Assembly: GCA_021432655.1 (NCBI GenBank) | Contig: MU271623.1 | Coordinates: forward strand, 6,144 to 38,356 | Source: Atractiella rhizophila | Lineage: Eukaryota | Reading direction: 5' to 3' | DNA length: 32,213 nucleotides | The notes under the pieces: model-generated | Database searches by the model: none | What the model saw: the letters and a program-made list of their open reading frames with translations, nothing else | What the model was told of the DNA's origin: nothing | Translations under genes and position numbers: made by a program | Part shown: positions 2,588 to 29,772 of the stretch, piece by piece | Layout: the number at the start of each line of letters is the position of its first letter | How positions within the stretch are numbered: the stretch's first letter is position 1

Positions 2588-4704
2588 TCAACAACCAGCT
2601 TTCTCAATCCAGTTGACATCCATAATGCCGAACTTTTGCTTTAACAGCAAAATCTCCCATGTTCGCCATGAAAGGACCTCGGGATGTTTTTCCTTGTCAT
2701 CCCACCCGGGACCAACCAAGTTGTTCAGTGAGCATGTCGTTGAAGCACCCCGAATCCGCAGAAATGGTGAGATCCCATGCCGCCAGGGATTGGAGGTAGC
2801 TATCATCCATTTGAACCAAATTGCTCATCCCAAAGTCGATGAGCACAAAATCGGGGGAGAGGCCAGGACAGGACGGAGGAGGACAAATGATTTGGTCAGG
2901 CCGGTCATGAAGATCCGTATGGTTGACGCCGAGGAGAAACATTGCCCCCATCAATGCCATTCCTTTGTTGAACTGTTGTTTGGAGATAAGCGAATTATAA
3001 CCAGCAAAAGAATGTGAGACGCACGAAATTTTGTTGTTCCTCTTCTGACAGGTCCCGAACCGAAGTCTCGTAGAGATGTGGACCATCGACGTATTCCATT
3101 AGGTGGGCCGCCGCGACTTCACCGTCAGGAAGCTGAATCTGTTTATACAAGGCGAGATTAGAAGGTCAGCCTTCAAAAAAAAAACTCACTCGATAAAAAA
3201 GCCGTAGGATCTCGGAACGCCAGAACCTTGCAGAAAGCGGAGTGCATGATAGGCTCTTTCTTCGCGCTGCCACGAATCTTCTGCATTCGGCCATTGTCTG
3301 ATCCGTAGAATACCGCTACAGTCCATCTCCCACGCCGGAGGTGGGAAGAGTCGTTCATCGTAGATCTTCAAAACTAGTTTCCGCGTTTCCAAAGCGGAGA
3401 CCTTTACTTCAAAGGTTTGGCCCCAAAATTCCTGTCCCGACCGTAAAGAGCTTTCTAGGAAAATCAAATCTCCTGGACAGAGTGAGAAACTCTCGGTGGA
3501 TGGTCGAATAGCGGAGGCTGCTTCAAAGAGAATATTTTGGAAGAATCGAACAAGTGGGTCTTCTGCCGTCATAAGCAGCGGTGGCACAAACGACATCGAA
3601 GAATGGGGGCAAGGGGAAATCACAGAAACAACTCGAAGCTCATGACCCGGGAACTGGAGCTCATCGAGCCAAACTTGAGCTTTCTGAAGTCGACGATTAT
3701 GCCAATCTGCAATCGCATCAAGAATAAGACCATCATCGTTCTGAGCATCGTAAAGATCTAGCTCGGCAGCTACCTGTATTCCATTGAGATCCACATCGTG
3801 CTCTTTACTAGGATCCCTCATCGCACCAGACACAAGAACTCGGGGGAAAGATGCTTCCCCAGTCTGGTGTGAAAATTTTGAGCAGTCCCATCGCTTAGAA
3901 AAGACCTCGCTGAGAAGTGTCAGCGCAGGAAGGTAAGGTCCTTCCTCAAAAGAGGCATAACAGAAAGATTTGAAACAATTAAAGATAACGGTAGCCTTGA
4001 AGTCCAGGAATGCGGCATGGTCCAACCGGTCAACCTCAAGTGATTGAAGGTACGCGAGATAGTTGCCCGCAACAATCGACGTGTCCTGAAAATTGATCCG
4101 CCCATAGTCTGGAAGTTTCCAGTCCTTTTCACGAAGGATTCCAGGAGTTTCCTGTGTTTAACGTCAGAATTAAGCCTCGGACTTTCCGCTGGTACGAACT
4201 AAGATGACAAGAACCGCCAAGGTCTCCTCCTCCATTTGCAAGCGCAGAATATCGACCTCTTGAGTTTGGACTCCGTTGGACGAACAGGTCTGGTGGGTGA
4301 TATGGATCGAAAGCGGCGCTGGTGCTCTTGCAGGGTACATATATATCAAGAATATCTTCAGATCGTGCAAAAACGCCGAAAGCCGTGATTCGCTGCCTAA
4401 AGTGGTCAGCGGTATGCTGGAGGAACTGGGAGACTCACGGTTGCACCTCCCCATGGATGAGTATTTCTGGCCAAAATGGGATGACGTTTAATGGAAGCAC
4501 CTCTAGGTCCTTGAGGAGATGGTCACGATAGGTGACCTTCAGGAATGTGCTGGTCTCTCTTGAGGGCAGAAACTGGGCGCTCGTAACCACTGATTCACAT
4601 CTGTCGTGTGGTCGCTTGGAAACGTCTTGAAGAAGTGGCGGGTCCTCACTATCATCGGAAAAGATTGGGAAGGAAGGCGTCAGGAAGGCGTGAAGCCTTG
4701 TCAT
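2588..4704 (-). pseudogene. K1: kinase-like family paralog, frameshifted (probable pseudogene)
   Basis: Same 5-exon structure as K2-K5 (exons 4704-4439, 4392-4200, 4151-3190, 3138-3025, 2972-2588, all GT-AG introns). Exon 3 is 962 nt versus 960 in K2-K4 (T6 instead of T4 in GGC TTT TAT CGA). Exon 5 has one extra base (TCC CGG GTG G GAT GAC), giving TGA at 2699-2697; the homologous C-terminus KHPEVLSWRTWEILLLKQKFG lies in another frame. Confidence 0.8.
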
Positions 4705-5668
4705 GATAGTGGTGACCTGCTGTGATGTTGATCTCGGGTTGGCGTGGAAGAATGAAGAGGTAGAAATACATGGGGAGATGAGAGGGTCTATTTGGAGTAT
4801 ACGGGTCTCGGCGACGATTGAAATTATATTAACAGGTCTGCATCTTACAGTCCCTTCGAATTCTTGGATAGCTTAATATGAGCGAGAGCGCCGAAGGCAG
4901 ATCTTGCTGCAGCCGCAAGCTACCTTTGGTACATATTGTGCACGTTCACAGAGGCGTTCACAGCGGCAGTAAATAACCCATATCATAGACACAAAGAGTA
5001 GACACTCGATCAAAACTTCAAGCTTCAGTTTGAGAACAATCCTCGAAAACCCCCTTGCACTGCAGGTCTACGACGCGAAAGCTCACCTGCAGATGAAACG
5101 ACAATGCTATGTATCCCGGATCACTTGGGATGTCCTTACAACTGAGACCAGCTGAGACAAGTTGCTGAAGGTGAAGGCGAACGCTAGCGCGTAGTTGTTC
5201 ACGATGCCCTGGACTCTTGTGGAGGAGAGGCGGGAGTGGGTGCACGAGACCGGAGGCGCCGCAAATCTAAATTCTGCAAATACAGGACTACTCTAACAGA
5301 CTAAAAGGATATCTCAACGGCCCAAGCGTTAATTGCTGGCACGTGGCGGATTCGCGTCCTCTGCCCGCCTACGAAACCCGAATGCTACTTCATGAACAAG
5401 AATGATTATCATCAGAGATCTGAAAGAAAAGTCACTGTAGTCATTTCTGAACGGTCTTGCCAACTCGGGCATACTTGACTGGGTTCGGCAATCAAAAGGT
5501 CGTAGACTCGTAGTGTGCTCCTCCCACCTTTTGTTTTCCCAACATACGAGTAATCTGTTGTGGTTTCAACGGATCTCCTTAGTACGGTGTTCATTCTCCT
5601 TCTCGTGAGTGCGCCATATTTCTCCCTTCTCTGCTAAATTTTTCGAGTAAAAGCACGTCGACCAAATC

Positions 5669-7807
5669 ATGATGCTTCTTCACGCCTTTCTCACACCAAC
5701 ATTTCCTGTCCCTGCCAACAAACCTAGAGAACCTCCACTACTTCAAGATGTCTCCAAAGAACCTCATGCTCGATATGCATCGTTGGTTACAAGTGCCCAG
5801 TTCATGCCGGCAAGGGACACTGATAAATTCTTCATGGTTTCACACCGGGATCACCTACTCAAGGACCTCGATGTCCTTCCATCGACCGTTAGTCCATTTT
5901 GGCCGGAGATCTCGATACATGGGGAGGTACATCCGTGAGGCTAGTGCAAATCTCTTTCCCATATCGCTCACCAACTTCAACAGGGAATCTCGTGTTTCAT
6001 TATTTTTACTAGATCTGAAGATGTTCTTGACATATATGTACCCTGCAAGAGCGTCCGCACCGCTTTGCATCCATGTTACCCATCAGACATGTTCCTCCAA
6101 CGGAGTTCAGACCCAGGAGGTCGATATTCTGCGCTTACAAATGGAGGAAGAGATCTTGGCGGTTCTTGTTATCTTGGTTCGTAGTCTTTGAAAAGTCCTA
6201 GGTTCAATGCTGACAATACTGACTGCAAACATAGGAGACTCCTGGAATCCTCCGTGAACAGGACTGGAAACGTCCAGACTATGGGCGGATTAATTTTCAG
6301 GACACGTCGATCGTTCCGGGCAACTATCTCGCGTACCTTCAATCACTTGACATTGATGGGTTGAGTTCTGCCGCGTTCCTCGACTTCAAGTCTACTGTCG
6401 TCGTCAATTTCTCCAGATCTTTCTCCTACGTCTCATTTGAGGAAGGACCTTACCTTCCTGCGCTGACACTTCTAAGTGAGGTATTTTCTGAACGATGGGA
6501 CTGCTCAAAATTTTCACATCAGACTGGGGAAGCATCTTTCCCCCGAGTTCTTGTGTCTGGTGCGATGAGGGATCCTAGTAAAGAGCACGATGTGGATCTC
6601 AGTGGAATACAGGTAGCTGCCCAGCTAGATCTTTACGATGCTCAGAACGATGATGGTCCCATTCTTGATGCAATTGCAGGTTGGCACAATGATCGCCTCG
6701 ACAAGGCTCAACTGTGGCTCGATGGGCTCCAGTTACCAGGCCATGAGCTTCGAGTTATTTCCGTGATTTCGCCTTGCCTCCCAAGTGCAATGTCCTCCAT
6801 CCCACCTCTGCTTATGACGGCAAAGGACCGGTTAGTCCGATTTTTTCAAAATATCCTTTATCAAGCCTCGTCTGCCCTTCGACCCTCAGTCCAGACTATC
6901 TCACTCTGCCCAGGAGATTCAATTTTTCTAGAAAGCTCTTTACGGTCAGGACAGAAATTTTGGGGACAAGTTTTTGAGGCAAAGGTTCACGCCGTGGAAG
7001 CCCAAAAACTGGTTTTGAAGATTTATGACGAACGCCTCTTCCCTCCTCCAGCGTGGGAGATGGATTACGAGGGCATTTTACGGATTAGGCGATGGCCGAA
7101 TGCAGAAGATTCGTGGCAGCGCGAAGAAAGAGCTTATCATGCTCTCCGCTTTCTGCAAGGTTCTGGCGTTCCAAGGTCCTACGGCTTTTACCGGGTGAGT
7201 TCTTCTTCGTTGGAGCTGACTTTTCAATAATCTTCTACAATCAGATTCAGCTTCCCGATGGCGAAATTGTGGCGGCTCACCTCATGGAATATGTCGAAGG
7301 TCCACACCTCGATGAAACTTGGGTCAAGGGTCTGTCCGAAGAAGAACAACAGAACTTTGTGGGTTGATATTCCTTCCGCCATTTCAAGTTACTAACCTGG
7401 AGCAGTTCAACAAAGGGATGGTATTGATGGGAGCAATGTTTCTCCTCGGCGTCACCCATACAGACCTTGACGACCGTCCCGACCAAATCATTTGTCCTCC
7501 CTCTTCAATCGCTGGTGTTGCCCCCGATTTCGTGCTAATCGACTTCGGGATGAGCAACTTGGTTCATATGGATGATTCCTATCTCGCATCTGTGTCAGCG
7601 TGGAATCTCACGATTTCTGTGGATTCCAATCACATGAATCGATTGTTGAATGAACAACTAGGTTGGTCATTGCGATATGGCCAGGAGAAGCACCCAGAGG
7701 TCCGTCCGCGGCGTACATGGGAGATTTTGCTCCGGCATCGCAAGTTTGGTATTCTGGACGTGAACTGGGATGAGGAAAAGGGGTTTTCAAGACAGACTAA
7801 GAGCTGA
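5669..7807 (+). CDS. K2: uncharacterised N-terminal domain + divergent protein kinase-like domain, 644 aa, 5 exons
   Basis: Exons 5669-5934, 5984-6176, 6235-7194, 7245-7358, 7406-7807 splice in frame (1935 nt) with GT-AG introns. Motifs SGQKFWGQVF, KLVLKIYD, REERAYHALRFLQGSGVPRSYGFY, LMEYVEG, HTDLDDRPDQI, VLIDFG. Confidence 0.88.
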
Positions 7808-8349
7808 ATTCGGATGTTTGGCGTTAATGGATTTCTATGTCGTGTTGAACTGATAACTCTTATCGCTCTTCTACAGTGATCTTTGCTTAATTGTCTAAGT
7901 TTTCTACAACGCTATGACTAGCTCCCACGCTAAAACTTCTAATCAAACGATATCCCAGGATCTCAGGTACCTGCTCTATGTTTTCCTAATTAGTTTAGTG
8001 GCTATATTCAAATTCACAATTTACAATACAATTAGGGTAATGGACTCATCGTGCTGGATTTGATTTGGGTCAACATTCTCGTCCTTCGACAGGTGTTACC
8101 AAGTGTTAGCCAGTGTCCCTCCCATGTGGCGATCGCCGCGACGTGGGATAAGGATTCAATGTACGAGCGAGGGCAATCAGACAAGAATTCTTCGAACTTC
8201 CTTCGTCCTTCCTGGTCTGCCGATTGACGATTGAGCAGGCATCAACATGATGCCCGATCTTGGTTGCTAGAGATCTAATGGGTCGACGTATTTGCCCTTT
8301 CAAGGTCATCGTGCTACGAATGCTGAATACGAATCTCAATCCCTGACAT

Positions 8350-10488
8350 TTAACGTTCAACATTGTCGACCTTGTTTTCTTCTTCCCAATTCACATCCAG
8401 AATGCCAAACTTCTGCTGTAGCAGCAAAATCTCCCACGTTTGCCATAAAAGGATCTCTGGGTGTCGTTCTTCGTCATCCAGCAAGGTCCAACCAAGCTGG
8501 TCATTGAGCATTTGGTTGATGTGTTCAGAATCCAGGGAAATTGTAAGATCCCATGCAGCAGGGGACGTTAGGTAGCTTTCATCCATTTGAACCAAATTGC
8601 TCATCCCAAAATCGATGAGCACGAAATCGGGAGCACTGCCAGGGCGGGAGGACGGAGGGCAAATGATCTGGTCTGGACGGTGATGGAGATCTGTATGGTT
8701 GACGCCAAGGAGGAAGATTGCCCCGATCAACGCCATCCCTTTGTTGAACTACTCAATAATAACGAATCGTCAAGTAATGACCAAAAAGATTTAAAACGTA
8801 CAAAGCTTTGTTGTTCTTCTTCAGACAGGTCCCTGATTAGCGTTTCGTCGAGATGTGGACCTTCGATGTATTCCATGAGGTGAGCCGCCACAATTTCGCC
8901 ATCGGGAAGTTGAATCTGTAAACAAAAAGATGGTGAATCCTGAGGTCATCATGAAACAAGGAAAAGTTCACCCGGTAAAAACCGTACGACCTCGGAACGC
9001 CAGATCCCTGCAAGAAGTGAAGGGCGCGATACGCTCTCTCCTCGCGCCGCCACGAGTCTTCTGCGTTCGGCCATCTTCTGATCGGTAAGACGCCGTCGTA
9101 GCCCATCTCCCACGCCGGAGGTGGGAAAAGGCGTTCGTCATAAATCTTCAAAACCAGTTTTTGGGCTTCCAAAGCATCAACCTTTGCCTCAAAAACCTGT
9201 CCCCAAAATTTCTGTCCCGACCGTAAAGAACGTTCGAGAAAAATAGAATCTCCTGGACAGAGTGACATAGTCTGGACTGAGGGCCGAAGGGCAGACGACG
9301 CTTGATAAAGGATATTTTGAAAAAATCGTACGAGTGGGTCCTTCGCGGTCATCAGCAGAGGTGGAATTGACGACATCGAGTGCGGGAAGCAAGGGGAAAT
9401 CACAGAAACAACTCGAATCTCATGACCTGGTAACTGGAGCTCATCTAGCCACAACTGAGCCTTGTGGAGGCGATCATTATGCCAATTTGCTATTGCGTTA
9501 ACGATGGTACCTTCGTCATTCTGTGCATCGTAAAGATCTAGGTCAGCAGCCATGGATATTGTACTTAAATCGACATTGTGCTCTTCATTCGGATTCCTCC
9601 CTGCGCCGGATACGAGGACTCGTGGGAAAGATGCTTCTCCAGTCTGATGTGAAAAATTCGAGCAGTCCCATCGTTCAGAAAAAGCCTCACTGAGAAGGGT
9701 CAATGTGGGAAGATACGGTCCACGCTCAAAAGAGACGTAAGAGAAACTCTCGCAAATGTTGAGTACCACAGTGGAGTGGAAATCGAGGAATGCTGCATAG
9801 TTCAGTCCATCGATATTCAGTGACTGGAGAAATCCCAAGTAGTTGCCTCCAATTTTTGAAGTATCCTGAAAATCCATCCGCCCGTAACTAGGAAGTTTCC
9901 AATCCTCTTCACGCAGGATACCTGGAGTTTCCTATATTCGGAGTTAGTGTGACACCTATGAATCCTCCGATTAAACTGACCAAGATGATAAGAACCGCTA
10001 AGACATCCTGATTCATCTGTAAGCGCAAAACATCGACTTCCTGGGTCATCACTCCCTCTGACGAGCACCTCTGGTGAGTAACATGGATGGAAAGTGGTGC
10101 AGGTGCTCTGGAAGGGTATATGTACCTTAAGAACGCTTCGAGATCAGACAAAAATGATGACAGGCGTGATCCACTACCAAATCTCGTCAGTGACAGAAGA
10201 TATGAACGAACAGTAGTCTTACGGCTGTACCTCACCATGGATCAAGATCTCTTGCCAAAATGGAACAACAGTCGACGGAAGTACCTCAAGGTCCTTGAGT
10301 ACATGGTCGCGATACGAAACGCTGAGAAATGTGTCGGTCTCCCGCGAGGGCATAAATTGAGCGCTTGTGGCTAGCGATTTACAAAGGGCATGAGGCTCTT
10401 TGGACACATCCTGAAGCAGGAGTGGCGTTCTACTGATATCGGGACTGATGGGAAAGGCGGGTGTAAGAAAAGCTTGAAGTCGCATCAT
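8350..10488 (-). CDS. K3: kinase-like family paralog, 643 aa, 5 exons
   Basis: Exons 10488-10223, 10173-9981, 9931-8972, 8915-8802, 8748-8350 splice in frame (1932 nt). Exons 1-4 have the same lengths as K2 (266/193/960/114) and the kinase motifs are the same. An upstream in-frame ATG at 10527 is an alternative start. Confidence 0.88.
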
Positions 10489-10529
10489 TGAAGAATCTAG
10501 TTCTGTTTCGCGGTACTCCATTGTCATTA

Positions 10530-11110
10530 AACATCCACATAAGACAAAGTTCAGTGCGAAATATGCTGGGAATGGGTATAAAAGCTACAGGATACGAAAT
10601 GGAACGCGGAATGTTTGCGCCAAGACAACAAACACGACAAATGGAAGAACACCACCTTTGACACACGAAAGGCATCCTTGGACAATGATACTTGAAAGTA
10701 AGGTGGGTCAGAGTCTCATACGACAAAGAATATCCTAGTCAGAACAAAAGATGATATCGCAACCTTTGTTCACAAATAAAAGAATTAGCAGGTGGGGATC
10801 GGTTGATAAAAGTCAGAAAGAAAGAGTATTGTGGCCGGTTTGTTGAGCATTCGACGCCAATTTCGTGCATAAGAATGATAGAACAAAGGAGCATAGCATA
10901 GTGTTGATGAGGCGTGGATCTGCAGTGAGTTAAGTTAAACAGAAGGCATTAGTTCTTTGATTAGCTTGCAGAGACACATATGTAAAACGGAAGCCAGGGT
11001 CTCTGACACTTGACAAAGAACTGAAAAGAAAAGGAGTGCATGGCTGAGGAGTCGATAAAAAGGCTACTAGCATAACAATTTCTGATCAGTGCAAACTCGA
11101 ACAAATCACG
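10530..11110. promoter_or_regulatory. Putative bidirectional promoter between K3 and companion A
   Basis: Spacer between divergent ATGs. The ~250 bp next to companion A match the reverse complement of ~26800-27040 in blocks (gttaagt...aaggca..ag..ct.tga.tagc; cttgacaaag.a..gaaa.gaaa.gg; aaatcacgATG). Confidence 0.45.
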
Positions 11111-11990
11111 ATGTCGAAGTCACAAGTTCCCACTTTCATACGGTCATCAGAGGCCGACCAATCGAAGCAGCAACCCGACCTCGAGATCAACCCACCCACA
11201 ATTGACGAACTTAATCCCCAGATCGAAATCACCAAACTCATTTACGCTCCATCCACGCCGACAACAGCGAGATTAGAACAGTTGAAGGGCAAACATAAAA
11301 TTACCACGGTCCCCGAGGAGGTCCCAAGGAGGAAACTCAAGGTGAGATCAAGACTGAGGTGGCGAATGAGAAGGTTCGTAAACCTCTGCGTAGCTTTTCG
11401 TCAGTCGGCCTGCCACGGCTTAAATTCCATCATTGTTGCCTTCAAAACCTGCGAATGGTACAAGATTACAGAAGAGATAGGAGGAAAACGCATCGGATTT
11501 AAAGATTACTATTGAGACGGTGTTGAAGAAATTGGAAGAAGAGAAAGGGAAGATGCCGTTGGAAACGGTGAATCCGATTGCAACTCACCCAAGGCCGGAG
11601 GTAGATGTCTTGTAAGCATGAGGTATTCAGTGCTATCACTCCTATGGCACTGATTGAAGGGACAACAGGATCCACGTGACTCAAGACACGGTTGGCGTCT
11701 GCGCCAACATACTCGAAAGGTATATTCAGTATATCAGGGAGGATCCGACAAGCACCATGACTGAGACTCCGCTCACCTTGGAGTGCCTCGCGGGGGCTCG
11801 CAAGGCCGTGCCAACAAGCTCAAGAAGCAACGTTCCAGTCAAAGGGATCTTCAAAGGTCAGTGTAACGAAGACAGAAGTCGTTTCGAAGCAGGGATCTAC
11901 GAACGACGTGGACGAAAACGCGGAGGCAGACAAGAAATCATCTGGTATGACCGTTACCTTGCTGTCATATTGGCATCTAATGTGGTTTAA
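11111..11990 (+). pseudogene. Companion A: unknown gene divergent from K3, apparently frame-disrupted
   Basis: ORF 11111-11515 and downstream segments match companion B: TIDELNPQIEITKLIYA, VAFKTCEWYKITEEIG, LETVNPIATH, DTVGVCANILERY, TLECLAGARKAVP. The matching blocks lie in different frames. The 3' limit is uncertain. Confidence 0.6.
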
Positions 11991-13529: not shown

Positions 13530-16500
13530 ATGGACCCATCACCAGCTTGGAGGTTAGTCTTCATCCATTCCTACCTGACTTCGCACGATGCCCAACAACA
13601 TCTCGGGGAAACAGGCAATTTGAACTCTTCAATCCCTCAGCGCCACTTTCCACCTTTTCTCTTCCACCTCCGCACCAGATCCTAGCTTCAACTGTCAATT
13701 CTTCTCACTCAATCCTTTACCTCTCGCTTTCCGATGCCACCATAAGGTACATGCTTATTCTACACTTTTATTACGAAGCAATATTGACTGCGTGTCACCT
13801 TTTTTAGAGCTTACGATGCACACGGGGAACGCAAATCCCTCGCTCTCGAAGGTCCCTGCTCCCTCCTCGCCATTTCCTCCGATCGCTATTTATATTGCAT
13901 CCTTGTTTGTTCCTCTTCCCCTTGTTTCTTCACATGTTGTTTAAAGGATTATGGAGCAGGAAGGTTCGCCGTCAGTGCTCAAAATTTACGACCTCTCTCG
14001 ATCCACCCCACCACTCCTAAACACAATCAAACTCCGTCCCTCTCCTGCGACCGCACTCGCTATCTCTCCATCTTCTCCCTCATCGAGCACTGTCCACGTA
14101 GCCACGGGTCATACGGATGGAGCTGTTCTCGTGCTCCGTAACATGCACTCACATCTATCCTCGAATTCCAACCCCAGAGTACGGCAGGTGCATTCCGACA
14201 GCTCCCCAATCACTGGACTCGCCTTTTCACTCTCCTCCCATCCACTAGCACAACAAACCAACGGGAAGGCAGCAGCCACAGGTGACGGAGTGCCACACCT
14301 CTACATCTCCACACCGACGCATACTCACTCCCTCCCCGTGTCGTCAAAAGGTACTCTTCCTCCATCTACGCTCGCCGACCCTCAAGGCTCAAACGTGGGC
14401 TGTCTCGTCTCCTCCCTCTCATCCTCACCCATCCCCTCTTCCTCTTCCTCTGAGCAGTCCCCAGATGCGACGACGACAAATACAGTGGAGTGGAAGACCA
14501 TCCTTGCCCGGCCGGAAGCGGTGTATGTGTATGGCAGCGAAGGTCGGGAAGGTTGTTATGCTCTCGAGGGCGATAAAACAATGGTAGTCCCGTTCTCAAA
14601 CTACGTCGTGCTAGTCTCCCCTCCCGTGCTTCCGACCGCGAGCGATATCAGTCGGACCATTCGTGGGGCTGAAAGAGGGAAGGAAGTGGGAAAGCTCACC
14701 ATTGTGGACCTGGGAAACCGGTTTGTTGGGTACAACACCACCTTCGAGAGCGGCGTTCGCGAGGTCTGGTCACTCTTCGGCGCCGTGTATGTTTATACCA
14801 ACGCAGGAGAATGTGTGAAGTTAGAGGAGAGGAAGGTAGAAGAGGTCCTCGAGGCTTTCTGCGAACGCAACTTGTACACGCTCGCTCTTGGATATGTCGA
14901 TAGCCGCGGGTTGGGTGGAGCAGGTTTGGGGGAGTGGAGGGTCGAGATTTGTAGGAGGTATGCGGATCATCTTTACACTAAAGGAGATTGGGAGGGCAGT
15001 ATGGGTTGGTATATCAAGACTGTGGGCGGGTTGCAGCCTAGTTATGTCATACGCAAGGTGGGCTGTATTTCTTCTTTCACTTTCCTGTTAAAGATCTCTC
15101 TCTCTTTCCCATCGTCCCCTTCTCGTGGCATGGCAAGTGGCGGCTAACACAGCGCTACAGTTTCTAGACGGCCAACGAATCAAGCTCCTCATCTCTTACC
15201 TCCAGGTCCTCCATTCACGCGGTCTCGCCACTTCGGACCACACCACCCTCCTCCTAAACTGTTACACGAAATCAAAGGACCTCTCCTCCCTCGATTCCTT
15301 TCTCTCTTCTACTCTCCCCTCTTCTTCCTCCACAACTTCAAAGGATAAAGAAGACCTCCCCTTTGACCTCCACACCGCAATACGCGTCTGCCGACAGGCA
15401 GGTTTGTCCGACCATGCTCTGTTGTTGGCGAGCAGATGGGGGGAAAAGGAGGATAGGATGAGCATATTGGTGGAGGATAGGACGGATTGGGAAGAGGCGA
15501 TAAAATTTTTGAGGGAGTTGGTGGGCGATGAAGAAACGGAGAGAGACGAGGTGGAGGGTTTCCTTCTTCGATATGGGAGAAAACTTTTGAAGGAAAGGGA
15601 GAGAGCGTTCACTGGACTCGTGAGGGACTTCTGTCTGGGACTCGCTCCGGCAGATGAAGAGGAGGAGGAAGACGGAGAGGAGAAGGAGGATAAATCGGTA
15701 GTAGAGAAGAAGGGTTATTTTTCCTATTTCGCCACGATCGCATCAAGCGGGCACACCCGTTCTCACAAAGAAAAGGAGAAAGAGAAAGAAAATGGAACCG
15801 ATGCTCCGTCGCTCCCCTCCCCTCCGAGGAAACGGACGATGAAGGAAGAGGAAGCCCTGCCCGACGTTCGAATCTTCTTCTCTCTATATATCGACCATCC
15901 TCTCTCGCTCATCTCCCTCCTCGAATCAGTCCTCTCTCACCTCTCGACGACGACTATCGACTTAACAGCGGCACAGACCCAAACGGTTTGGAACACGCTG
16001 CTTGAGCTTTATGTCCGCATGGGAGGGGAGTGGGGATCAAAAGCTTTAGAATTGCTGAAAGACGAGAGGGCAGGTTATGAACCTAATCAGGCACTCTTGG
16101 TCTGCACTATGTGCGGTTATGAAGAAGGACTTGTAGTCTTGTATGAAAAGATGGCGATGTTCGTGGAGGTCCTTCGACTCCATATTGCTCTGGGAGGAGA
16201 GGAGGGCGAGAGGCTGGTAGTAAGCACATTGAGGAGGTACCTGAGGGAGAAGGGGATGAGGAAGGAGGACCTAGTGGAGTGCATGAGAGTCGGATTGAGA
16301 TGGTTGACCGAGGAGGAGGGGAGGCTGAGCAGACAAAGAGACCAGGTCCTCGAGTTTCTCCAGGTCGTCGAGGAGAGGAAACTCCTCAAACCAATCGAAG
16401 TGCTCGAGTGTGTTCAGGGAAATGTAAGCGTGGGAGTGGTGAGGGGATTCTTGAAAGGGTGGCTAGAGGAAGAACGGAAAGAGACAGAATCGGTGAGTCT

Positions 16501-16998: not shown

Positions 16999-17617
16999 TA
17001 ACCTGCCAGTGGAAGCAACTCCTATGCTGCGTTTTAGATAATTGACGCCGTCGTAATCACTCTGCAGTCGGTATTCCGAATAGCATTCTTTGATTTGACA
17101 AACTGGATTAGAGGCATGGATGGTTTGAGGTGAAAAGAGCTCTTACCCTGTATTACAGTAAGCTCTAGGGAACAGTGAACATTTGTGAGCTGCTCCAATT
17201 CGACGGGGGCTCCGACGCTTCCCCCTTTTCTGGTTCGTCGCTGGCAGTCCACAAGCAATCTGTCCTTTGCTTTGGTTTTGTACTTCTCAGCGACGTTTCT
17301 TGATGCGAGATCATGCTAGCTGATGCGCTGATGAAGGACTTCCGCCAAAACAGAAGAACCGCGTCACGTACGAGCGTCGCGAGCACGAACAAGAGCTGAA
17401 GATCATATGTGTTGCGACACATGCTCTTCCCCTCTTGACAGTCAGTTGATCCCCTGCGCAGGAGGCTAGAATGCTGAATTTGTTTTCCAAGAGATATCGA
17501 GACTCGTTTGCTAATGAGGTTGTTCAGATCCGGCGACGACCTCAAACCCCCGCTTCTGCATAAGATGTGTTACTTTGAACATGTCCAAAGTGCCTTTCCT
17601 GTCCCCTTCAGCCGAAG

Positions 17618-20600
17618 ATGAAAGGCTCGCTCGCAGTTCGAGTCGTATTTTTAGCCCTCTCGTTCCAAAATGTCGCCTTGTCGCAAGTCCAGAACCTCAC
17701 TGGACCAGGATGGAACACTGTCCCTCCTCCTCTCGCTAACGGCGGAAGTCATTGGGCGGCCGCTTTCACGCGCGCGAAGAAGATTGTGGACCAGATGACG
17801 ATTGAGGAGAAAGTGAGAATCGTTACCGGTCAAGATGGTGCGTTGACCCATAGAACTCTGCATTGTGGTTACCCAACATTTTAGGCCTTTGCGGTGGGAA
17901 TGTTGGAAATGTGTCTCGGGTCGGATTTCCTGGATTATGCTTGTGCGTCCTTTCTTTCATTCTGTACGACGCTCACAATCGGCAGAGCGGATGGACCGGC
18001 GGGTCCTCGACCTGCAAAAGGTGCGGTTTGTCCCAGGCTCTTCCTAGACGAAGCCGTTAAAAGATGAAGAGAAGGTGTAACTCAACTACCCGCTGGAGTC
18101 ACGACCGCCGCAACTTGGAATCAGGATCTTATCTACCAGCGCGCTGTGGTCATTGGCCAAGAGTTTGCAGACCTGGGAGTAAACGTGGCACTCGGACCTG
18201 TTACTGGTGCGTTATTCGTTATATTTTCATATACTTTGATTATTCCTACTAGCATAATTTCTACTAAACCTTACTGATTGGTATGGCTCAGGAGGGCCTT
18301 TGGGAAGAGCGCCACGGGCAGGAAGGAACTGGGAGGGGTGGTCGACTGATCCTTATGCTTCCGGTGTTGCTTCTTACCTTAGCGTAAAAGGAATGAAGGA
18401 ACATGGAGTAATTATAACCGCGAAGCACTACATTGGTGTGTCTCCTACGCAGAGAGCAGGACTCACAATGCTGATATGTCACAACCGTGAAACAGCTTAC
18501 GAACAAGAGACCTTCAGGCGATACTATGCTGCGAACCCTGCAAGTTTCAACTCGAGTCAGCTCAGCATTTCTGCCAATCTAGATGACAGAACAATGCATG
18601 AGGTATATCTTTGGAGCTTTGCGGAAGCGGTGAGAGCAGGGGCAGACTGTGAGCATTCTCCCTTTTCGCGCCCTCCACAACTCAGTCCAGTGCAGACGTG
18701 ATGTGCAGGTGCGTTCTAACTGTTGCGCGAGAAGGCAAAATCTGAGTCGCTCATCCGCAGTTATAACATGAGTGCGTCTTAATTCTGAACTTGTGACCGG
18801 AGAAAACTGATAATTGTGCAGTCAATCAAACCCGATCCTGTGCGAACTCCATGACCATCAACGGCCTCCTCAAAACAGAACTTAACTTTCAAGGCAAGTT
18901 TCCGTCTTTACTTAGTTTCGAGACTTGATTACTCCGTTCCAGGAGCGGTCATGAGTGATTGGGGAGGCGTGTATGAAGATACCAATGGGGCCTTCGAGAT
19001 GGGAGGAACAGATTTAATGTACGTCGCGCCCAATTTTCTTCCCTTGTTCTGACGAGCTTTGCAGCATGCCGGGCAATGGATGTACGGAATACTTCCTCTT
19101 GAAAGTGCCCACTAAGAGGCGTGGCAGTCTTTGGTATATTGGGAACGTTTTGGAACGACACCCTTGTAGAGCAGGTAATGACCCTATTGCCCACGTTGCA
19201 CTGGAGGCGCTAATGCCCTGTTCACCAGGTCAAGAATGGGACAGTACCAGAATCGAGACTCACAGATATGGTGCTGCGAATAGTGACGCCTTTCTATGCC
19301 AGTGGTCAAGCAGATAAGAAACTTCCGTCTCCAGGTATGCTACTTCTAGTTACCATCTCGTTTCTTGATATTTGTGTACAGTTTACACCCAGGGTGTTTA
19401 CACGAATGTACAAAAACCTTCAAGTGTCACACTTGCGAAGACAATTGCGGAAGAGTCTCTGACTCTTCTCAAGAACGTTAATGGGGCCTTACCACTGAGA
19501 GCCCCTCAGACGCTTGCCATAATCGGGGAAGATTCTGGGCCTAATATCCTCGGAACATGCGTAAGCGATTCCTTATTCTTTAAAGATGTCGGTAGGAGAG
19601 AAGATGTCAGGGAGATACCGCTATGAGCTGTCCGATCAATAACAATAATGGAACTATCACCATGGGCGGAGGGTCAGGTGCGTGTGGTCTATTTGAGGAG
19701 TATACATTTAGACTGAACAGTAGCAACATAGGCTACGCATATCCAAAGAACTTGATCACTCCCCTTCAAGCTCTCCAAAGTCGAGCCGCTGAGTTGGGAA
19801 CCCTAGTGCAATTTGTTTTGAATGATACAGCATTCGACTCTATCTCTTCTGTGCGTACCGATTGAACTTTTTTCAGTAATTCTCAGTCTTTAAATAGGCA
19901 GCAGCCACATCAGAGGTTGCGATTGTGTTCCTCTCGGCATGGGCACAAGTGAGCTCTAAAATGATCGAGTGGCTATAGCTGATCGATCTGCAGGAATTTC
20001 AAGACCGGACTGACCTCGATGTACGAAACGCAATTGTTAATGCTACAGCTTCGGTCAATAATAATACCATTGTCGTGCTTCAGTTCGTCGTCTTCTTGCT
20101 GTCTCTCACGTGCGCTGAAGCATGATATTCAGTATTCCGGGTCCCGTCCTCAGTGCGTCCTCACAATGATTTCTACAGCACGTTCTAATGAAGGAAAAGT
20201 CGAGGAGTGGGTTGAACACCCAAATGTTACTGGTGAGTCCTCTGTCACTGTTCTGCGCTGATTCTGATGGTGTGTAACAGCAATTATCGCAGCTTACTAT
20301 CCCGGTGAACAAGCTGGACCATCTCTCACAAGTGTCCTCTATGGTGTGAGTGTAAATATTCTTCTAATCTGAAAGCTGACATAAACTACAGGACATCTCG
20401 CCAAGCGGCAAACTACCATTCACGTTGGGGAAGCGGAGCCAAGATTGGCCTGTGCGCTCTTTTCTTCCTCATGTTGCAGTATCCTCATTGCTAGGAAAGC
20501 CAAACAATCTGGTGACGGAAGAAAGCGACACACCACAAGCGAACTTTACAGGTTCGTGCCTCAAGGCTTAAACGCTCCTCCTAATCGCAAGACATCTGTA

Positions 20601-21191
20601 GAGGGTCTTAATTTTGACTACAAATGGTTCGATTCCCAAAATATCGAGCCACGATACGAATTCGGCTTTGGTCTTTCATATACGAGCTTCAAATACTCGA
20701 ACATCCAGATTTACAAGACTTTCAAGCGAGATACCACTACCATTGCTAGAACTGCAGAACCGTTCGATGGAACATCGTCGCTATATGACATAATTGCCGT
20801 AGTGCAAGCTTCCGTCAAAAATACAGGCAACATTGTGGCGTCTGAAGTTGCCTTCTTGTTTCTAGAGTTCGCGCCTGAAGAGGAGGAGCCTCCGCGTAAC
20901 CTCAGAGGTTTCACAAAACTGTCCAACATTTCTCCAGGTGCTTCGAAAACTGTGTGTCCTCTTCTTAGCCACTCGTCCTCTTGGTGACCCCGTCAAACAC
21001 AGGCTATCTTTGACTTGAGAAGGAAAGATGTCTCAGTGTGTGCGTATGTTTCAGCTTTAAATGTTCTTGATCTGATCATCTTACTAGGGGACGTGGTGTT
21101 ACAGCGTTGGAGGCTTCCAAAAGGAAAGGTAACTATGCATGTTGGTCAAAGCTCCAGGATCCTTCCACTGAATACGCAGACAACTTTTTAG
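17618..21191 (+). CDS. Secreted glycoside hydrolase family 3 beta-glucosidase (BGL1-like) with C-terminal FnIII-like domain
   Basis: Signal-peptide-like N-terminus; MTIEEKV; DGPAG; GRAPRAGRNWEG; TAKHYI; DDRTMHEVYLWSFAEAVRAG; VMCSYN; VMSDWG (nucleophile Asp); TLLKN; GGGSG; PSGKLPFT; PRYEFGFGLSYT; LRGFTKL. More than 20 short introns; stop TAG at 21189-21191. Confidence 0.95.
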
Positions 21192-22338
21192 CCTATTCTC
21201 AAATCGTGCAATGGAATCGCGTTCATCATCTTTCGCTCAGGTCGACGTGATTAACTTCACGTCTGCTTCCACTGGATCTAACCTGTATATGGCGAATATA
21301 TTAATCGATTGAGCTCATTCTGGCTCAATGGTACTATTACTGAGCAGCTAAGACCGAATTTGTTACGTGGTCAGGGTACCTTTCAAATCGTGTAGCAGTT
21401 TGCATGCATCCAATAAAATAAAGTTTCGAACGGTGCACGCACGTGCGAAATTCAGAACAATCGACATTCGTGTTGTCAGCGTCAGCACAGACATTTGCTG
21501 CTTGTTGCCAACAAGTATATTGCGGTTCTTCCACACAACTCTCTTCAGCGCCTCTCCGGTGGACCGAACGGAAGTTTGGAATAGCTAATGATCAGCTGGA
21601 GAGGGACCCAGGAATTGACTACTTCACTACAGCATAGTAATCTTCAGGTGAGTTGTCGCGTGGTTCAGTTGCATGTGATGGAGCTGTAAAGCAAGCGTCA
21701 CTGTTATTTCTTGTCTGGAACGGGTGGTCGTTCCCGCAAATTCTTTGCTGATTCGTAAAAACAATATTGCACATGCTGAACATGACTGAGGACCGCCATC
21801 TTATGGTTTCGCTTGTTTGAGGGCCGCCTAAAATTGGTAGATGGACTAACTCATTTCAATCTTGGATACAGAGTCATTATACCCCCTATTATCTTGCCAT
21901 GCTACGTTCATGCCGTTTATTTAACCAACTGTAGCCCTTTGTAAGTAACAGAGTTCAGATATCCCTTTGTATTAGTTCCTCGGGGTTCTTTGTTTTAAAT
22001 AGCCTTATTCTTTTGCTACCGAATGTGATGTCCATTACGACACTGTACTCCACGCACGAAAGTCTTCTGCATAAAGCTCTTAGTTCCGATTTCCACACTT
22101 TAATGAACCTCTTTGACTACTGTCCCAGACTGCCACCGGGACAGCCTTTGTAGCGAAATAAAGGGTGAAGAATGTATGTGTTCTTATCTTTGTTCTTCTT
22201 TGACCGAGCCTGACTCACCTGCTCCGTTGTCCAGAGGCTAATTTCACCACATAGCTTCTTATAACAGTCTATACAGCCCTTCTTCATTTCGCCCCATCCT
22301 GTGTCCTGTTTGAGCAACGCATCTGGCTGCAAGCAACG

Positions 22339-24451
22339 ATGCGGCTTCCCGCCTTTCTCACACCAACATTTGCTGTCTACTCCAATCCCACCGGAAGCCC
22401 ACCTCTCCTTCAGGATGTTTCTGGAAAACCTCACACTCTATCAAAGTCGCTGTTCACGAGCGCTCAATTTATACCTACTAGAGAGACAGACAAGTCGATT
22501 AAGGTTTCATATCGTGATCACCTACGAAAGGACCTTGAGCTGCTACCGTTGAATGTTGTTGTTCCATTTTGGCCGGAGATCTTGATTCAGGGGGATGTGC
22601 ATCCGTAAGACGACTACTCGTTGATCTGCTGTGCCACTGATGAGCTCAAGCAGAGAATCTCGTCTTTCAGCTTTCTTGTTTGATTTGACGACATTCTTGA
22701 AGTACATGTACCCTGCGAGAGCACCAGCTCCACTTTCCATCCACGTTACCCACAGAACTTGTTTTGCAGATGGAGTCCGGACGCAGGATGTGAATATATT
22801 GCGCTTGAAAATGATGGAGGAGGTGCTGGCGGCACTTGTCATCTTGGTTGGTATCGATTGAAGATTAAGGGTCGGTCCTAACTCAGACAATAGGAGAATC
22901 CGGGTACACTTCGTCAGCAAGACTGGAGAGGTCGCACATACTCGTTCATAGATTTTGATGATACGTCAGGAATAGCAGGGAACTACTTGGCCTTTCTCGA
23001 CTCACTAGACATTACTCAGCTCAACTTCGCGGCTTTCCTCGATTTCAAATCTACAGTCATAGTCAACATCTCTGAATCTTTCTCTTCCGTCTCTTTTGAG
23101 GAAGGTCCTTACCTTCCAGTGCTGACACTTCTAAGTGAGGTCTTTTCTGAGCGATGGGACTGCTCGAAATTTTCACATCAGACTGGGGAAGCATGTTTCC
23201 CCCGTGCTCTCGTGTCTGGCGCGGGAAGAGATCCCGATGAAGAGCACGACGTGGATCTCAGTGGAATACTGGTGGCTGCGGACCTAGACCTTTACGACGC
23301 TCAGAACGACGATGGTCCCATTCTTGATGCAATTGCAGATTGGCATAATGATCGCCTCGACAAGGCTCAACTGTGGCTCGATGAGCTCCAGTTACCAGGT
23401 CATGAGCTTCGAGTTATTTGCGTGATTTCGCCTTGCCTCCCAAGTGCAATGTCATGCATTCCAGCCCTGCTCATGACCGCGAAGGACCAGTTAGTCCAAT
23501 TTTTTCAGAATATCCTTTTCCAAGCTGCCTCTGCCGTTCGACCCTCAGTCCAGACTGTCTCTCTCTGCCCAGGAGATTCTATTTGTCTCGAAAGCTCTTT
23601 ACGGTCAGGACAGGAATTTTGGGGACAAGTTTTTGAGGTAAAGGTTCACGCCGTGGAAGCCCAAAAACTGGTTTTGAAGATTTACGACGAACGACTCTTC
23701 CCTCCTCCGGCGTGGGAGATGGATTACGAGGGTATTTTACGGATTAGGCGATGGCCGAATGCAGAAGACTCATGGCAGCGCGAAGAAAAAGCTTATCATG
23801 CTCTACGCTTTCTGCAAGGTTCTGGCGTTCCAAGGTCCTACGGCTTTTACCGGGTGAGTCCTTTTTCGTCGAAGCTGACTTTTTAATTATCTTCTACAAT
23901 CAGATTCAGCTTCCCGATGGCGAAATTGTGGCGGCTCACCTCATGGAATACGTAGAAGGTCCACACCTTGACGAAACATGGGCTACTGACTTTTCTGAAG
24001 CAGAACAGCAAGACTTTGTGGGTTCATGTTTATTTTGTGTTGATCATCATTTCATTAAGCCAAACAGTTCAACAAAGGCATGGCATTGATGGGAGCAATG
24101 TTTCTCCTCGGCGTGAACCATACTGATCTTGAAGATCGTCAAGATCAAATCATCTGTCCACCTTCCTCCCCAAACCGCGCTCCAGATGTCGTGCTCATCG
24201 ACTTTGGGATGAGCAATCTGGTTCAGATGGATGAAAGCTACCTTACATCTATCTTTGCATGGAATCTCGGCATCTCCAAAGATTCCATTCATATGAACCG
24301 GATGCTCAACCGACAGCTTGGTTGGACCTTACTCCATGATAAGGAAAAACACCCTGAGGTGCGTTTGTACTATACGTGGGAGATAATGCTGCGACAGCGC
24401 AAGTTCGGTATTCTGGAGGTGCACTGCGATGAAGAAAAGGGGTTGTCGTAA
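22339..24451 (+). CDS. K4: kinase-like family paralog, 638 aa, 5 exons
   Basis: Exons 22339-22604, 22654-22846, 22894-23853, 23904-24017, 24068-24451 splice in frame (1917 nt). Kinase motifs as in K2, with catalytic loop HTDLEDRQDQI and VLIDFG. Confidence 0.88.
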
Positions 24452-24525
24452 GTGGTAGTGATAGCTTGTTCTCCCTGCCACTTGTGTTGGATGCAATATG
24501 ACCAACAAAGACAGCTCCATTATAG

Positions 24526-25782: not shown

Positions 25783-26079
25783 AAACCGCCGCTATGATGC
25801 TGTCGGCGGTTGGCATTTGTGGTTAGACAGTGTATACAACGCAAACTTGCTCGCCAACAGCTTGTGTGTGTCGTGCCACTGCAGTGTTGGGTTACCATGC
25901 TAGAACTGATGTCATCTGGTCATCGATGGACATTAAGGCATGCCATAGACAAGTCCTGCAGTTAGATGAACGGAGGTGGACTTATTAAGGCTGACTGCTT
26001 TGTCGGCATAAAGATGTTCTAGAAATTGCTAGACGTGCCTATGCTATTGTATTTCATTCATGGATACCGAGACCTCTAT

Positions 26080-26798: not shown

Positions 26799-27662
26799 CG
26801 TGATTTATTCGTGTTGAGAATGCGATCACCAAAATCATCGAAGTACTAGTACTTTCCCACTCTTACAGTCGTCTGTCGCCTATTTTCCCTTTCTTTCTCT
26901 GCTTTGTCAAGGTTTCTAGGAGAGCCTTGTCTGCTAGTCAGAGGGCTGGTGCCTTTCATCGCACTTAACACTAGTTCCTAAATGGTGCCATCCTTGGCCG
27001 TCCGCTTGAAGTAGCACTTTCTTTGTTTCTATTATTCCCGCCTTTCTGTATTCCTTCATGCATCATCCTTTCTCACAGAAATGGTAAACAACCTCGCACA
27101 TAGCGATATTCCTTTGTCTGCTTTGCGATGAATGATATCTTTTTTGATCCTTCATGTGACGCTAAAAATGATCCCTTTGGCTACTCTTCCACAATTGTAG
27201 GCACCTGCACGTATGTCTTCCTTTCTATTCCTTCCTATCTTTTCTTTGTTTCGCCTGGTCTCACTCTTTGTTGACTTTTGCTTCGACGAATAACAACTCC
27301 CCGCCGTTGTCTGCTACCCAAAAACTGCCATGCACTTCTTGGTTCAATCCAAATCAATTATGATCCTTAGCAAGTATCACTCTAAGTATTGTCTCACCTG
27401 ACCATGATATTCTTGCACCGCCAGATTCACTTCTAAAGGAAAGGAGGCCTACGTGTTCGTTCCTCTTCTCCGCAACGCATTTTCTCATTTGTCCAACATG
27501 TTCCTTTCATATCCGCGTGAGAAACATGGTTGTTGGTAGTTGCTTCTTTCACTAGGAAAGGTTAATGGCCATGGAAGTGTGCCACCCATATTTTGTCCTT
27601 TTCGTATGGTCCCGCGTTGAACTGTTTACTAGCTGCAGCTGCAAATCTAGGTTTATCCGATA
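26799..27662. promoter_or_regulatory. Putative bidirectional promoter between companion B and K5
   Basis: Pyrimidine-rich spacer between divergent ATGs. The part next to companion B is homologous to 10870-11110. Confidence 0.45.
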
Positions 27663-29772
27663 ATGCGGCTTTTCGCCTTTCTCACACCAAGCTTCCATGT
27701 CCCTTCTGACCGGGGTGGAACTCCACCACTGCTCCTTCAGGATGTCTCCAAAGAGCCGCATGCCTTGTGCAAATCGTTGGTGACAAGCGCTCAGTTCAAA
27801 CCCACAAGGAAGACGGACAAATTTATCAAGGTTTCGTATTATGATCATCTTCGAAAAGACCTTGAGGTGTTACCTTTGAATGTGACTGTCCCGTTTTGGT
27901 CGGAAATCTTGGTTCATGGAGATGTGCAACCGTGAGGCTACTCCTTTTCTGTCCCCCATCCCGCTGATCACCTTCGGTAGCGAAACCTGTCTTTCATCAT
28001 TTTTGCTCGATCTGAAAACTTTCTTGACGTATATGTACCCTGCAAGAGCACCCGCACCTCTTTCCATCCACACTTCCCACGAGACGTGTTTTTCACAGGG
28101 AGTGAGAACCCAGGAGATTGATATTCTGCGAATCCAAATGGAGGAGGAAGTCTTGGCAGTTCTGGTTGTCCTGGTTGGTACAGCTTTCAAGACTGACGCG
28201 AAATGTTCACATAGGCCTAGTCCCCAGGCACACTGCGAGAGGAAGACTGGAAAGGTGTCACGTTTTCATCCATCGACTTTGAGGATACATCCCAAATTGC
28301 AGGGAACTACTTAGCATTTCTCCAATCACTTGACATTGATGAGCTCGATTATGCCGCATTCCTTGATTTCAAGTCTACTGTCACACTCAATGTCTCTAAA
28401 TATGTCTCATACGTCTCTTTCGACCATCGGCCATATCTTCCCGTGTTGACACTCCTGAGTGAGATTTTTTCTCGTCGGTGGGATTGCTCTCAATTTTCGC
28501 ACGAGACTGGTGAAGCTTCTTTCCCACGAGTCCTCGTGTCTGGCGCTGAGAGGGATCCAAACGAAGAGCACGACGTGGATTTAAGCACAATTACGCTGGC
28601 TGCTGACCTAGACCTTTATGACGCTCAAAACGACGATGGTCCCATCCTTGATGCAATTGCAGATTGGCATAATGATCGCCTCGACAAAGCTCAGGTGTGG
28701 CTAGATGAGCTCCAGTTACCAGGTCATGAGCTTCGAGTTATTTCTGTGATTTCCCCTTGCCTCCCCAGTTCAATTTCGTCCATCCCACCTCTGCTCATGA
28801 CCGCGAAGGACCCGCTAGTTCGATTTTTTCAAAATATCCTTTATCAAGCGTCGTCTGCCCTTCGGCCCTCAGCCCAGACGACCTCGATACATCCAGGAGA
28901 TTCAATTTTTCTAGAAAGCTCTTTACGGTCAGGACAAGAATTTTGGGGACAAGTTTTTGAGGTAAAGATCCACGCTTTGGAAGCCCAAAAACTGGTTTTG
29001 AAGATTTACGACGAACGACTCTTCCCTCCTCCAGCGTGGGAGATGGACTACGACGGCATTTTACGGATTAGGCGATGGCCGAACGCAGAAGATTCGTGGC
29101 AGCGCGAAGAAAGAGCTTATCATGCCCTACGCTTTCTGCAAGGTTCTGGTGTTCCAAGATCCTACGGCTTTTACCGGGTGAGTTCTTCTTCGTCGGAGCT
29201 GACTTTTTAATTATCTTCTACAATCAGATTCAGCTTCCCGATGGCGAAATTGTGGCGGCTCACCTCATGGAATATGTCGAAGGTCCCCACCTCGACGAAA
29301 CTTGGGTCAGGGACCTGTCAGAAGAAGAACAGCAGAACTTTGTGTGTTGACATCCTTTCCGCCATTTCAAGTTACTAACCTGGAGCAGTTCAACAAAGGA
29401 ATGGCGTTGATGGGGGCAATGTTTCTCCTAGGCGTTACACACACAGATCTCAACGATCGACCAGATCAAATCATCTGCCCTCCTTCTTCCCTCCTAGGTG
29501 TTGCGCCGGATTTCGTGCTCATCGACTTTGGAATGAGTAATCTGGTGCAGATGGATGAGAGCTACCTCACATCCGTGTTGGGGTGGAATCTTAATATTTC
29601 GGTGGATTCCGAATATATCAATCGGATGCTCATTCAACGACTTGGTTGGACCTTGGTTGATGATGACGAAAAGCACCCTGAAGTTTTGTTACGGTACACG
29701 TGGCAGATTTTGCTAAGAAAACGAAAATTTGGGATTCTGCATGTGAACTGGGATGCAGAGAAGGGGTGGTAA
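27663..29772 (+). CDS. K5: kinase-like family paralog, 638 aa, 5 exons (requires the distal acceptor of intron 2)
   Basis: Exons 27663-27931, 27981-28173, 28221-29177, 29228-29341, 29389-29772 splice in frame (1917 nt). Catalytic loop HTDLNDRPDQI and VLIDFG. Confidence 0.8.

Follow-up and report, generated by a model that had tools for sequence, protein, structure and literature searches.

Proteins that join a nuclease to a kinase are described as a widespread design in conflict systems (PMC12693581, PMC5289972). In the SPOK3 protein, killing is the work of the PD-(D/E)XK domain and protection that of the kinase; in HHpred this nuclease domain matches HsdR of V. vulnificus best (PMC6660238). 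SPOK1 without kinase function is described as causing DNA damage in E. coli and yeast (PMC9972908). The pairing of a restriction endonuclease (REase) with a kinase also occurs in about a sixth of Crinkler toxin C-termini, and in REase-kinase Crinklers such as Phytophthora CRN8 the nuclease is proposed to be toxic and the kinase to regulate it (PMC5289972, summarising Zhang et al. 2016). Here we analyse a 32,213-nucleotide stretch of Atractiella rhizophila DNA (assembly GCA_021432655.1, contig MU271623.1, positions 6,144 to 38,356 of the forward strand; hereafter the window) that carries five paralogous genes, copies A–E, whose ~640-residue products model as a restriction-endonuclease-like domain followed by an atypical protein kinase. 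Experimental evidence for single-gene killer/antidote proteins built from a nuclease and a kinase comes, to our knowledge, from no more than a few ascomycetes. An initial annotation of the window had proposed a locally expanded, uncharacterised family of two-domain atypical kinases forming a candidate conflict locus, an interpretation that our results partly support.

Self-BLAST of the window revealed five copies of a ~2.1-kb unit in the orientations -, +, -, +, + (2591-4695, 5669-7788, 8375-10490, 22334-24447 and 27660-29770, respectively), with pairwise DNA identities of 73.4-78.9% over 2002-2137 bases (E = 0.0). A five-way alignment combined with splice models resolves every copy into five exons (263-269, 193, 957-962, 114 and 384-402 nucleotides (nt)) and four GT..AG introns of 41-58 nt, which fall in the same alignment columns and the same phases throughout. 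All five copies open with nine codons (e.g. window 5672-5698) that read M-(R/L/T)-L-x-A-F-L-T-P. These data confirm that A–E are a real paralogous gene family in the window; the arrangement, the identical intron positions and phases and the ~640-residue spliced products put forward in the initial annotation all hold, with intact spliced reading frames of 638-643 amino acids (aa) in copies B, C, D and E.

Copy A (2588..4704, -; exons 4704-4439, 4392-4200, 4151-3190, 3138-3025 and 2972-2588) is frameshifted in the window. Copy B (5672..7807, +; 643 aa; exons 5672-5934, 5984-6176, 6235-7194, 7245-7358 and 7406-7807) has an additional intron in its 5′ untranslated region (5′UTR) at ~5605-5653. Copy C (8350..10485, -; 642 aa; exons 10485-10223, 10173-9981, 9931-8972, 8915-8802 and 8748-8350) reads LDFH in place of LDFK and has the intron 3 donor GTGAAC. 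The splicing of copies D (22339..24451, +; 638 aa; exons 22339-22604, 22654-22846, 22894-23853, 23904-24017 and 24068-24451) and E (27663..29772, +; 638 aa; exons 27663-27931, 27981-28173, 28221-29177, 29228-29341 and 29389-29772) is modelled from the alignment. Copy D has QDVNIL where the other copies have QEVDIL, and the acceptor of intron 2 in copy E is predicted 6 nt further downstream, where it avoids an in-frame TAG.

Contigs from four public transcript runs (X1-X4) were mapped to window 2500-10600, i.e. to copies A, B and C. Run X4 covered 29 of the 30 bins of this interval and runs X1-X3 only small parts (shares 0.05-0.06); predicted introns were matched to contig joints allowing the one-base cut shift reported by the tool. 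Spliced contigs confirmed 10 of the 12 introns of the three copies at canonical GT..AG borders and supported an eleventh, intron 3 of copy A. For copy A the joints were 4392/4439, 4150/4199 and 2972/3025 (introns 1, 2 and 4), and at intron 3 a contig links 3138 and 3197 through five intervening letters, giving T4 rather than T6 and remaining in frame. All four coding introns of copy B were recovered in run X4 (5934/5984, 6175/6234, 7193/7244 and 7358/7406), as was its GT..AG 5′UTR intron (joint 5604/5654, side 201). A weaker intron candidate (side 20) lies at window 4719-5087, upstream of copy A in the common A/B promoter region. The joints of copy C were 10173/10223 and 9930/9980, with 8748/8802 contributed by run X2, corresponding to introns 1, 2 and 4. 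The sole contig over intron 3 of copy C (8916-8971, -) comes from run X2 (8819-8969) and is unspliced, which, like the stretches of C that transcripts leave uncovered, speaks neither for nor against splicing; the public model P0034 splices this intron. Transcript cover of A and B was steady in a culture-type run.

The same transcripts bear on the frameshift of copy A. The window sequence carries two extra nucleotides where exon 3 ends, with T6 in place of T4 (bases 3195-3200), and one in a C3G3 run in exon 5 (2705-2710); between the two insertions the frame is lost, with the first stop at codon 487. Every X4 contig covering either site lacks the extra bases, those of X1 and X3 do likewise for exon 5, and at 2705-2708 the X4 depth without the extra base is 76.8 of 76.8. 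P0036, a public A. rhizophila protein that matches copy A at 99% identity over 205 aa, also reads through intact. The transcripts lacking both insertions come from a strain or haplotype roughly 99% identical to that of the window. The frameshift reported in the initial annotation is real in the window, but the status of copy A as a pseudogene is doubtful, since both the transcripts and P0036 lack the extra bases. The lesion is a property of the present assembly or haplotype and may reflect either strain-specific decay or an assembly error in the homopolymer runs where both insertions lie.

The C-terminal half of the proteins models as a protein-kinase fold. In copy B this domain (6931..7804, +; residues ~385-643) is eukaryotic-like, spans introns 3 and 4 and contains VLKIYDE (Lys), REERAY (Glu), GVTHTD (catalytic Asp), PDQII and IDFG. 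An AlphaFold2 (AF2) model of P0034, which is 100% identical to residues 130-642 of copy C, reached a predicted local distance difference test score (pLDDT) of 78.5 and a predicted template-modelling score of 0.70. Foldseek returned at least 500 matches to this model at E ≤ 1e-3, the top ones all being protein kinases (best 3.8e-7), and VIA-align matched it to YabT (Z 14.1, root-mean-square deviation (rmsd) 3.6, 218 aligned), Sky1p (Z 13.3), Rio2 (Z 12.9) and PknB (Z 12.8). A profile of 37 relatives, searched against PDB sequences, likewise had nothing but kinases among its top matches, which span the region from hinge to DFG (best E 5e-4). In the alignment of relatives the Lys (VLKIYDE) and the Glu (REExAY) are invariant, HTD stands in the catalytic loop and the DFG motif reads IDFG; copies B, C, D and E keep the Lys, the Glu and both Asp residues, those of HTD and DFG. 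The signature E..AY..L..LQG..VP..YG highlighted in the initial annotation was also borne out, as E..AY..L..LQG..P..YG is invariant or nearly so across the 37 relatives.

Eukaryotic-like kinases of the RIO, Kdo/WaaP, APH and ABC1 types and Hanks-type kinases have the same fold (Z 11.7-14.1) and the same Lys/Glu/HxD/DFG residues, but the window family differs from them in several respects. A Gln occupies the aligned place of the metal-binding Asn, the catalytic loop (HTDLxDRPDQ) being two residues longer ahead of it; P0027 and P0021, both distant relatives, retain the usual Asn. The glycine-rich loop reads RSGxxxWGQVF, and no APE motif is present in the alignment of the family kinase domain. Pfam scans of exon pieces and relatives gave no family above cut-off, in keeping with the description of the genes as uncharacterised, and the faint matches below threshold were to ABC1, APH, Kdo, RIO and Pkinase. 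Nothing relevant to a link between FunK1 and a restriction endonuclease appeared among the titles and abstracts retrieved. Judged by its residues, the kinase is atypical and probably active.

The N-terminal half models as a restriction-endonuclease-like fold. The initial annotation had correctly seen a two-domain protein with an atypical kinase, but had not recognised the fold of the other domain. In copy B this PD-(D/E)XK-like domain extends over 5924..6513 (+; residues ~85-245) and spans introns 1 and 2. Its structure was predicted with AF2, together with 17 relatives, from P0005, a public allele of B that comprises residues 1-256 and ends in a mis-spliced tail. The core (residues 70-243) was modelled at pLDDT 76-92, and residues 1-64, with two short helices, fell below 50. 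The predicted elements (helix 92-107, strands 116-127, 131-142 and 145-153, helix 180-190, strand 198-202 and those following) fit the alpha-beta-beta-beta-alpha-beta core of the PD-(D/E)XK superfamily, as far as a predicted model with middling Z scores allows.

Comparison of this model with 48,161 chains in VIA-align placed restriction-endonuclease-type domains in all of the top six positions, and a repeat search gave the same picture. These matches were BpuSI (rank 1; Z 8.1, rmsd 3.5, 120 aligned), HsdR of EcoR124I (Z 7.1), the putative restriction endonuclease 9y1l (Z 6.6), HsdR of V. vulnificus (rank 4; Z 6.3), DrdV (Z 5.9) and TT1808 (Z 5.7). Further such folds within the top 50 were D212, 3ijm, I-Bth0305I, DUF820, Bax1, VRR_NUC, Hjc, EcoRI and BsaWI. 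The best structural matches overall are nuclease domains of type I (HsdR), IIG (BpuSI), IIL (DrdV) and IIB (BsaXI) enzymes, at Z 8.1-5.2 over 102-120 aligned positions. Compared with these restriction enzymes, the window domain is 7-14% identical in sequence and has no motor or methyltransferase partner.

In our best explanation, the locus comprises a set of five paralogues, expressed and spliced, that encode intracellular ~640-aa proteins and are set in a gene-rich, non-repetitive stretch of the Atractiella (Pucciniomycotina) genome. Each protein consists of a leader of ~85 aa for which the model is poor, a PD-(D/E)XK-fold domain (~85-245) most like type I and IIG/IIL nuclease domains, a helical linker (~250-380) and a divergent eukaryotic-like kinase (~380-640), in which the Lys that binds ATP, the Glu of helix C and the Asp residues of HxD and DFG are all retained. 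Most likely the nuclease-type domain acts on nucleic acid and the fused kinase controls or neutralises it, as in SPOK spore killers and Crinkler REase-kinase toxins; the family would then serve genetic conflict (toxin/antidote, non-self recognition or defence) and not housekeeping signalling. The restriction-endonuclease-like fold makes the idea of a conflict or toxin locus concrete, as a nuclease plus a kinase is the SPOK and Crinkler design. A role in conflict is plausible, and we put at about even the chance that the best explanation as a whole is a nuclease-fold plus kinase family working like SPOK or Crinkler modules.

Relatives of the family are few. An HMMER scan with exon 3 of copy B against 1.84 billion representatives gave only 33 matches at E ≤ 1e-3. 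The named matches came from A. rhizophila in 12 of 12 cases in one set of relatives and in 4 of 10 in another look-up; all matches strongly covering the N-terminal part were hypothetical proteins of this species, and a word-indexed protein search with the family alignment found only Atractiella proteins among the 8000 candidates sharing most words. Distant relatives (18-29% identity) were found in Plicaturopsis, Taiwanofungus, Laetiporus, Meripilus and Rhodotorula and in metagenome pieces. In these searches, close full-length relatives are confined to A. rhizophila and distant ones are scattered in Basidiomycota. The local expansion proposed initially is thus upheld, with five copies in the window and a family nearly confined to one lineage; neither conserved single-copy housekeeping orthologues nor an absence of transcription, the two outcomes named beforehand as contradicting the proposal, was found.

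Several public A. rhizophila proteins correspond to the window copies: P0001 is 95.7% identical to D, the fragments P0037 and P0005 are 98% identical to B, and the fragment P0046, compared by eye, equals the matching stretch of E. About 18 family models on 9 contigs are present in the public data for this species, some of which may be alleles. A quick tree divides the Atractiella proteins into three subfamilies, and the clade of the window copies also includes P0035 and P0038, giving this local clade at least seven members. In the public A. rhizophila assembly, copies identical or nearly so to C and E lie on two different contigs and A/B-like copies on a third, and the family's gene models are mostly truncated; that assembly is therefore fragmented or split by haplotype at the locus. 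By the same spread over three contigs, the window derives from a different assembly or haplotype of this fungus or of one very close to it. The Plicaturopsis crispa relatives P0017, P0057 and P0058 share one 4.1-Mb scaffold under close accessions (KII95526, KII95533 and KII95536), which suggests that the family clusters locally in an agaricomycete too.

The paralogues are mosaics in their mutual identity. Over alignment columns 1401-1800, a span that takes in intron 3 (copy B 6950-7330), identity among copies B, D and E is 93-97%, and between A and B it reaches 98% over columns 1001-1100, compared with 55-78% in most other 100-column windows. This pattern points to gene-conversion tracts between the paralogues.

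A number of observations weigh against a role in conflict, and the first of them concern the N-terminal fold itself. With the N-domain model Foldseek gave no match at E ≤ 1e-3, the N-domain profile gave none against PDB sequences at E ≤ 10, and neither these searches nor the Pfam scans yielded a sequence-level link to any nuclease or SPOK. Z scores of 6-8 can be reached by models without a true match (typically 7-8, according to the tool's own note), the best value here being 8.1, and the P0005 model has a mean pLDDT of 64 from a shallow alignment of 18 rows. The match could accordingly have arisen by chance, the N domain being instead a new alpha/beta domain attached to a kinase. We consider this quite unlikely: the assignment carries weight because one fold class, and within it the same subgroup (type I/IIG/IIL nuclease domains), fills the top six places among the 48,161 chains and covers the whole core (88-240). 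A separate ESM Atlas model of another paralogue, P0035, points to the same families, with clusters of HSDR_N, BpuSI_N and the MmeI N-domain at template-modelling scores of 0.25-0.31, all under the bar and so leads only.

A second set of observations concerns the candidate active site. The sole invariant Asp of the N domain lies in AAFLD-F-K-S (LDFK, residues 201-204, in copy B). This hhhDxK(S/T) pattern presumably resembles the RecB-type motif III. The Lys two positions after the invariant Asp is present in four of the five window copies, is replaced by His in copy C and is absent in the distant relatives. The candidate upstream Asp is an Asn in copy D, and the Glu of ILETPG is missing in copy E. 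A full D...(D/E)xK catalytic triad is unreadable in the family sequences, and a QxxxY motif could not be identified in them.

The evolution and surroundings of the genes also tell against conflict. Paralogue pairs have ratios of non-synonymous to synonymous substitution (dN/dS) of 0.12-0.18 at dS 0.7-1.5 (Nei-Gojobori), values which show that the window paralogues are old and under strong purifying selection; the family evolves in the manner of a conserved cellular gene. Conservation is highest in the N-lobe and hinge of the kinase (up to 100% over 40 aa), the nuclease-like part stands at 60-80%, and variation is greatest at the N terminus, in residues 120-200 and in the C-terminal tail; with this kinase-heavy pattern, a kinase-centred function fits as well. 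The neighbours are ordinary genes. Between copies C and D lie a VPS11/PEP5 gene (13945-16995, +; PEP5_VPS11_N E 3.3e-45, TPR_PEP5_VPS11 1.6e-37, VPS11_C 2.6e-07) and, adjoining it, a GH3-type beta-glucosidase gene of several exons (~17579-20987, +; Glyco_hydro_3 E 9e-07, Fn3-like 1.5e-04). No transposon domains were found in the 17 remaining window open reading frames tested, and there is no Starship-type context.

These features would suit an ordinary, lineage-expanded atypical kinase with a cellular job such as small-molecule or protein phosphorylation, in which the nuclease-like domain is a catalytically dead binding or regulatory scaffold. Such a protein would be expected to show the strong purifying selection on old duplicates, the better conservation of the N-lobe and hinge, the incomplete retention of canonical nuclease residues, the ordinary neighbourhood and the steady cover of A and B in culture that we observe. 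This alternative is a real possibility, though on balance we doubt it. The nuclease-fold domain is full-length in all copies and in the distant basidiomycete relatives, with one invariant Asp; many clustered copies and a patchy, narrow distribution are unusual for a core kinase; and the look-alike clusters are of the SPOK/Kdo/APH type. Of the birth-and-death conflict locus proposed in the initial annotation, the conflict part thus gains from the nuclease-plus-kinase design, but the old paralogues, their low dN/dS and the ordinary neighbours speak against it, and the element of gene death is doubtful.

Two further features lie in the window. A duplicated small unit with 71-77% identity occurs at 11094-11482 (+) and 26815-26432 (-), with a frame that starts MSK... 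and no Pfam match. It precedes copies C and E in divergent orientation, and these two seem to have been duplicated together with this neighbour gene. A 504-aa open frame (30702-32213, -), cut off by the right-hand edge of the window, is Ser/Gly-rich, looks largely low-complexity and has no Pfam match.

Among known systems, SPOK (Podospora Spok1-4 and their Pezizomycotina homologues) resembles the window family in placing an HsdR-like nuclease-type domain before a kinase of the eukaryotic-like (ELK) type. Both are multicopy and undergo gene conversion, both have a 5′UTR intron (reported for Spok genes, found here in copy B), and both are expressed outside meiosis (for SPOK, PMC6660238). HsdR of V. 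vulnificus, the best HHpred match of the SPOK3 nuclease, is also the rank 4 match of the window domain, and an ELK-type kinase with its catalytic Asp is present here by fold and by the HTD and DFG Asp of B, C, D and E. In the ESM Atlas feature match for residues 1-395, the top cluster contained SPOK2_N in 76% of its members (score 0.88, 159 shared; a lead only), and the whole-protein look-alikes included SPOK2_N/Kdo/APH clusters, with feature look-alike scores of 0.88-0.95. These likenesses would be expected if the genes were true SPOK family members, that is, homologous single-gene killer/antidote meiotic drivers in a basidiomycete.

Other features argue against such homology. The window family differs from SPOK in its four coding introns, its basidiomycete host, the lack of a Starship context and a catalytic Lys that is not in every copy, and its dN/dS lies far below the 0.66-0.98 of SPOK paralogues (Table 2 of PMC6660238). 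The N-terminal coiled-coil repeat of SPOK type was not found, Tandem Repeats Finder giving at the coding starts only an 11 nt x 1.9 repeat at 4671-4691. The SPOK Cys/His cluster C-x3-C-x13-C-x5-H-x7-H, searched with loosened spacings, was absent from all 14 proteins inspected (five window copies and nine relatives). There was no Pfam match in a Pfam copy that may lack PF27653 (SPOK2_N; InterPro IPR052396). According to PMC12693581, SPOK homologues are reported from Pezizomycotina only, and among literature on Spok with Basidiomycota or Agaricomycetes no title or abstract dealt with basidiomycete homologues. Membership of the SPOK family is not shown by these comparisons, and we regard it as very unlikely. 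A bolder version of the conflict reading treats the genes as working single-protein toxin/antidote elements, with killing by the nuclease-like domain and protection by the kinase. Such elements would be the basidiomycete equivalent of the SPOK spore killers, either very distantly related or put together independently from the same two modules; in Atractiella they would have reached fixation and multiplied, with the potential to distort inheritance or to control hyphal fusion. This we think improbable.

Should the nuclease-fold plus kinase family indeed work as a conflict module, a compact, expressed and well-conserved two-fold family in a distant phylum, without the coiled coil and the zinc-finger-like cluster, would provide independent material on how a kinase neutralises a nuclease. 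The four intact paralogues offer natural variants at candidate active-site residues, with Lys replaced by His in C, Asp by Asn in D and a Glu lost in E. The family would be evidence, too, that modules of this kind are able to last under purifying selection amid ordinary chromosomal genes as well as on mobile or accessory DNA. If the nuclease-like domain is inert, the genes still define a basidiomycete kinase family outside all Pfam models.

Crinklers provide the second comparison. No signal peptide or ubiquitin-like header of the Crinkler kind was found in the window proteins, whose residues 1-64 are modelled at pLDDT below 50, and as far as can be seen the genes are not of the secreted-effector type. 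Their M-(R/L/T)-L-x-A-F-L-T-P start is faintly like the Crinkler LxLFLAK motif named in PMC5289972, a resemblance only, in a region with no confident fold. In domain design, the REase-kinase Crinklers described there (PMC5289972) and the window family are alike, each coupling a domain of the restriction-endonuclease superfamily, here assigned by modelling, to a kinase.

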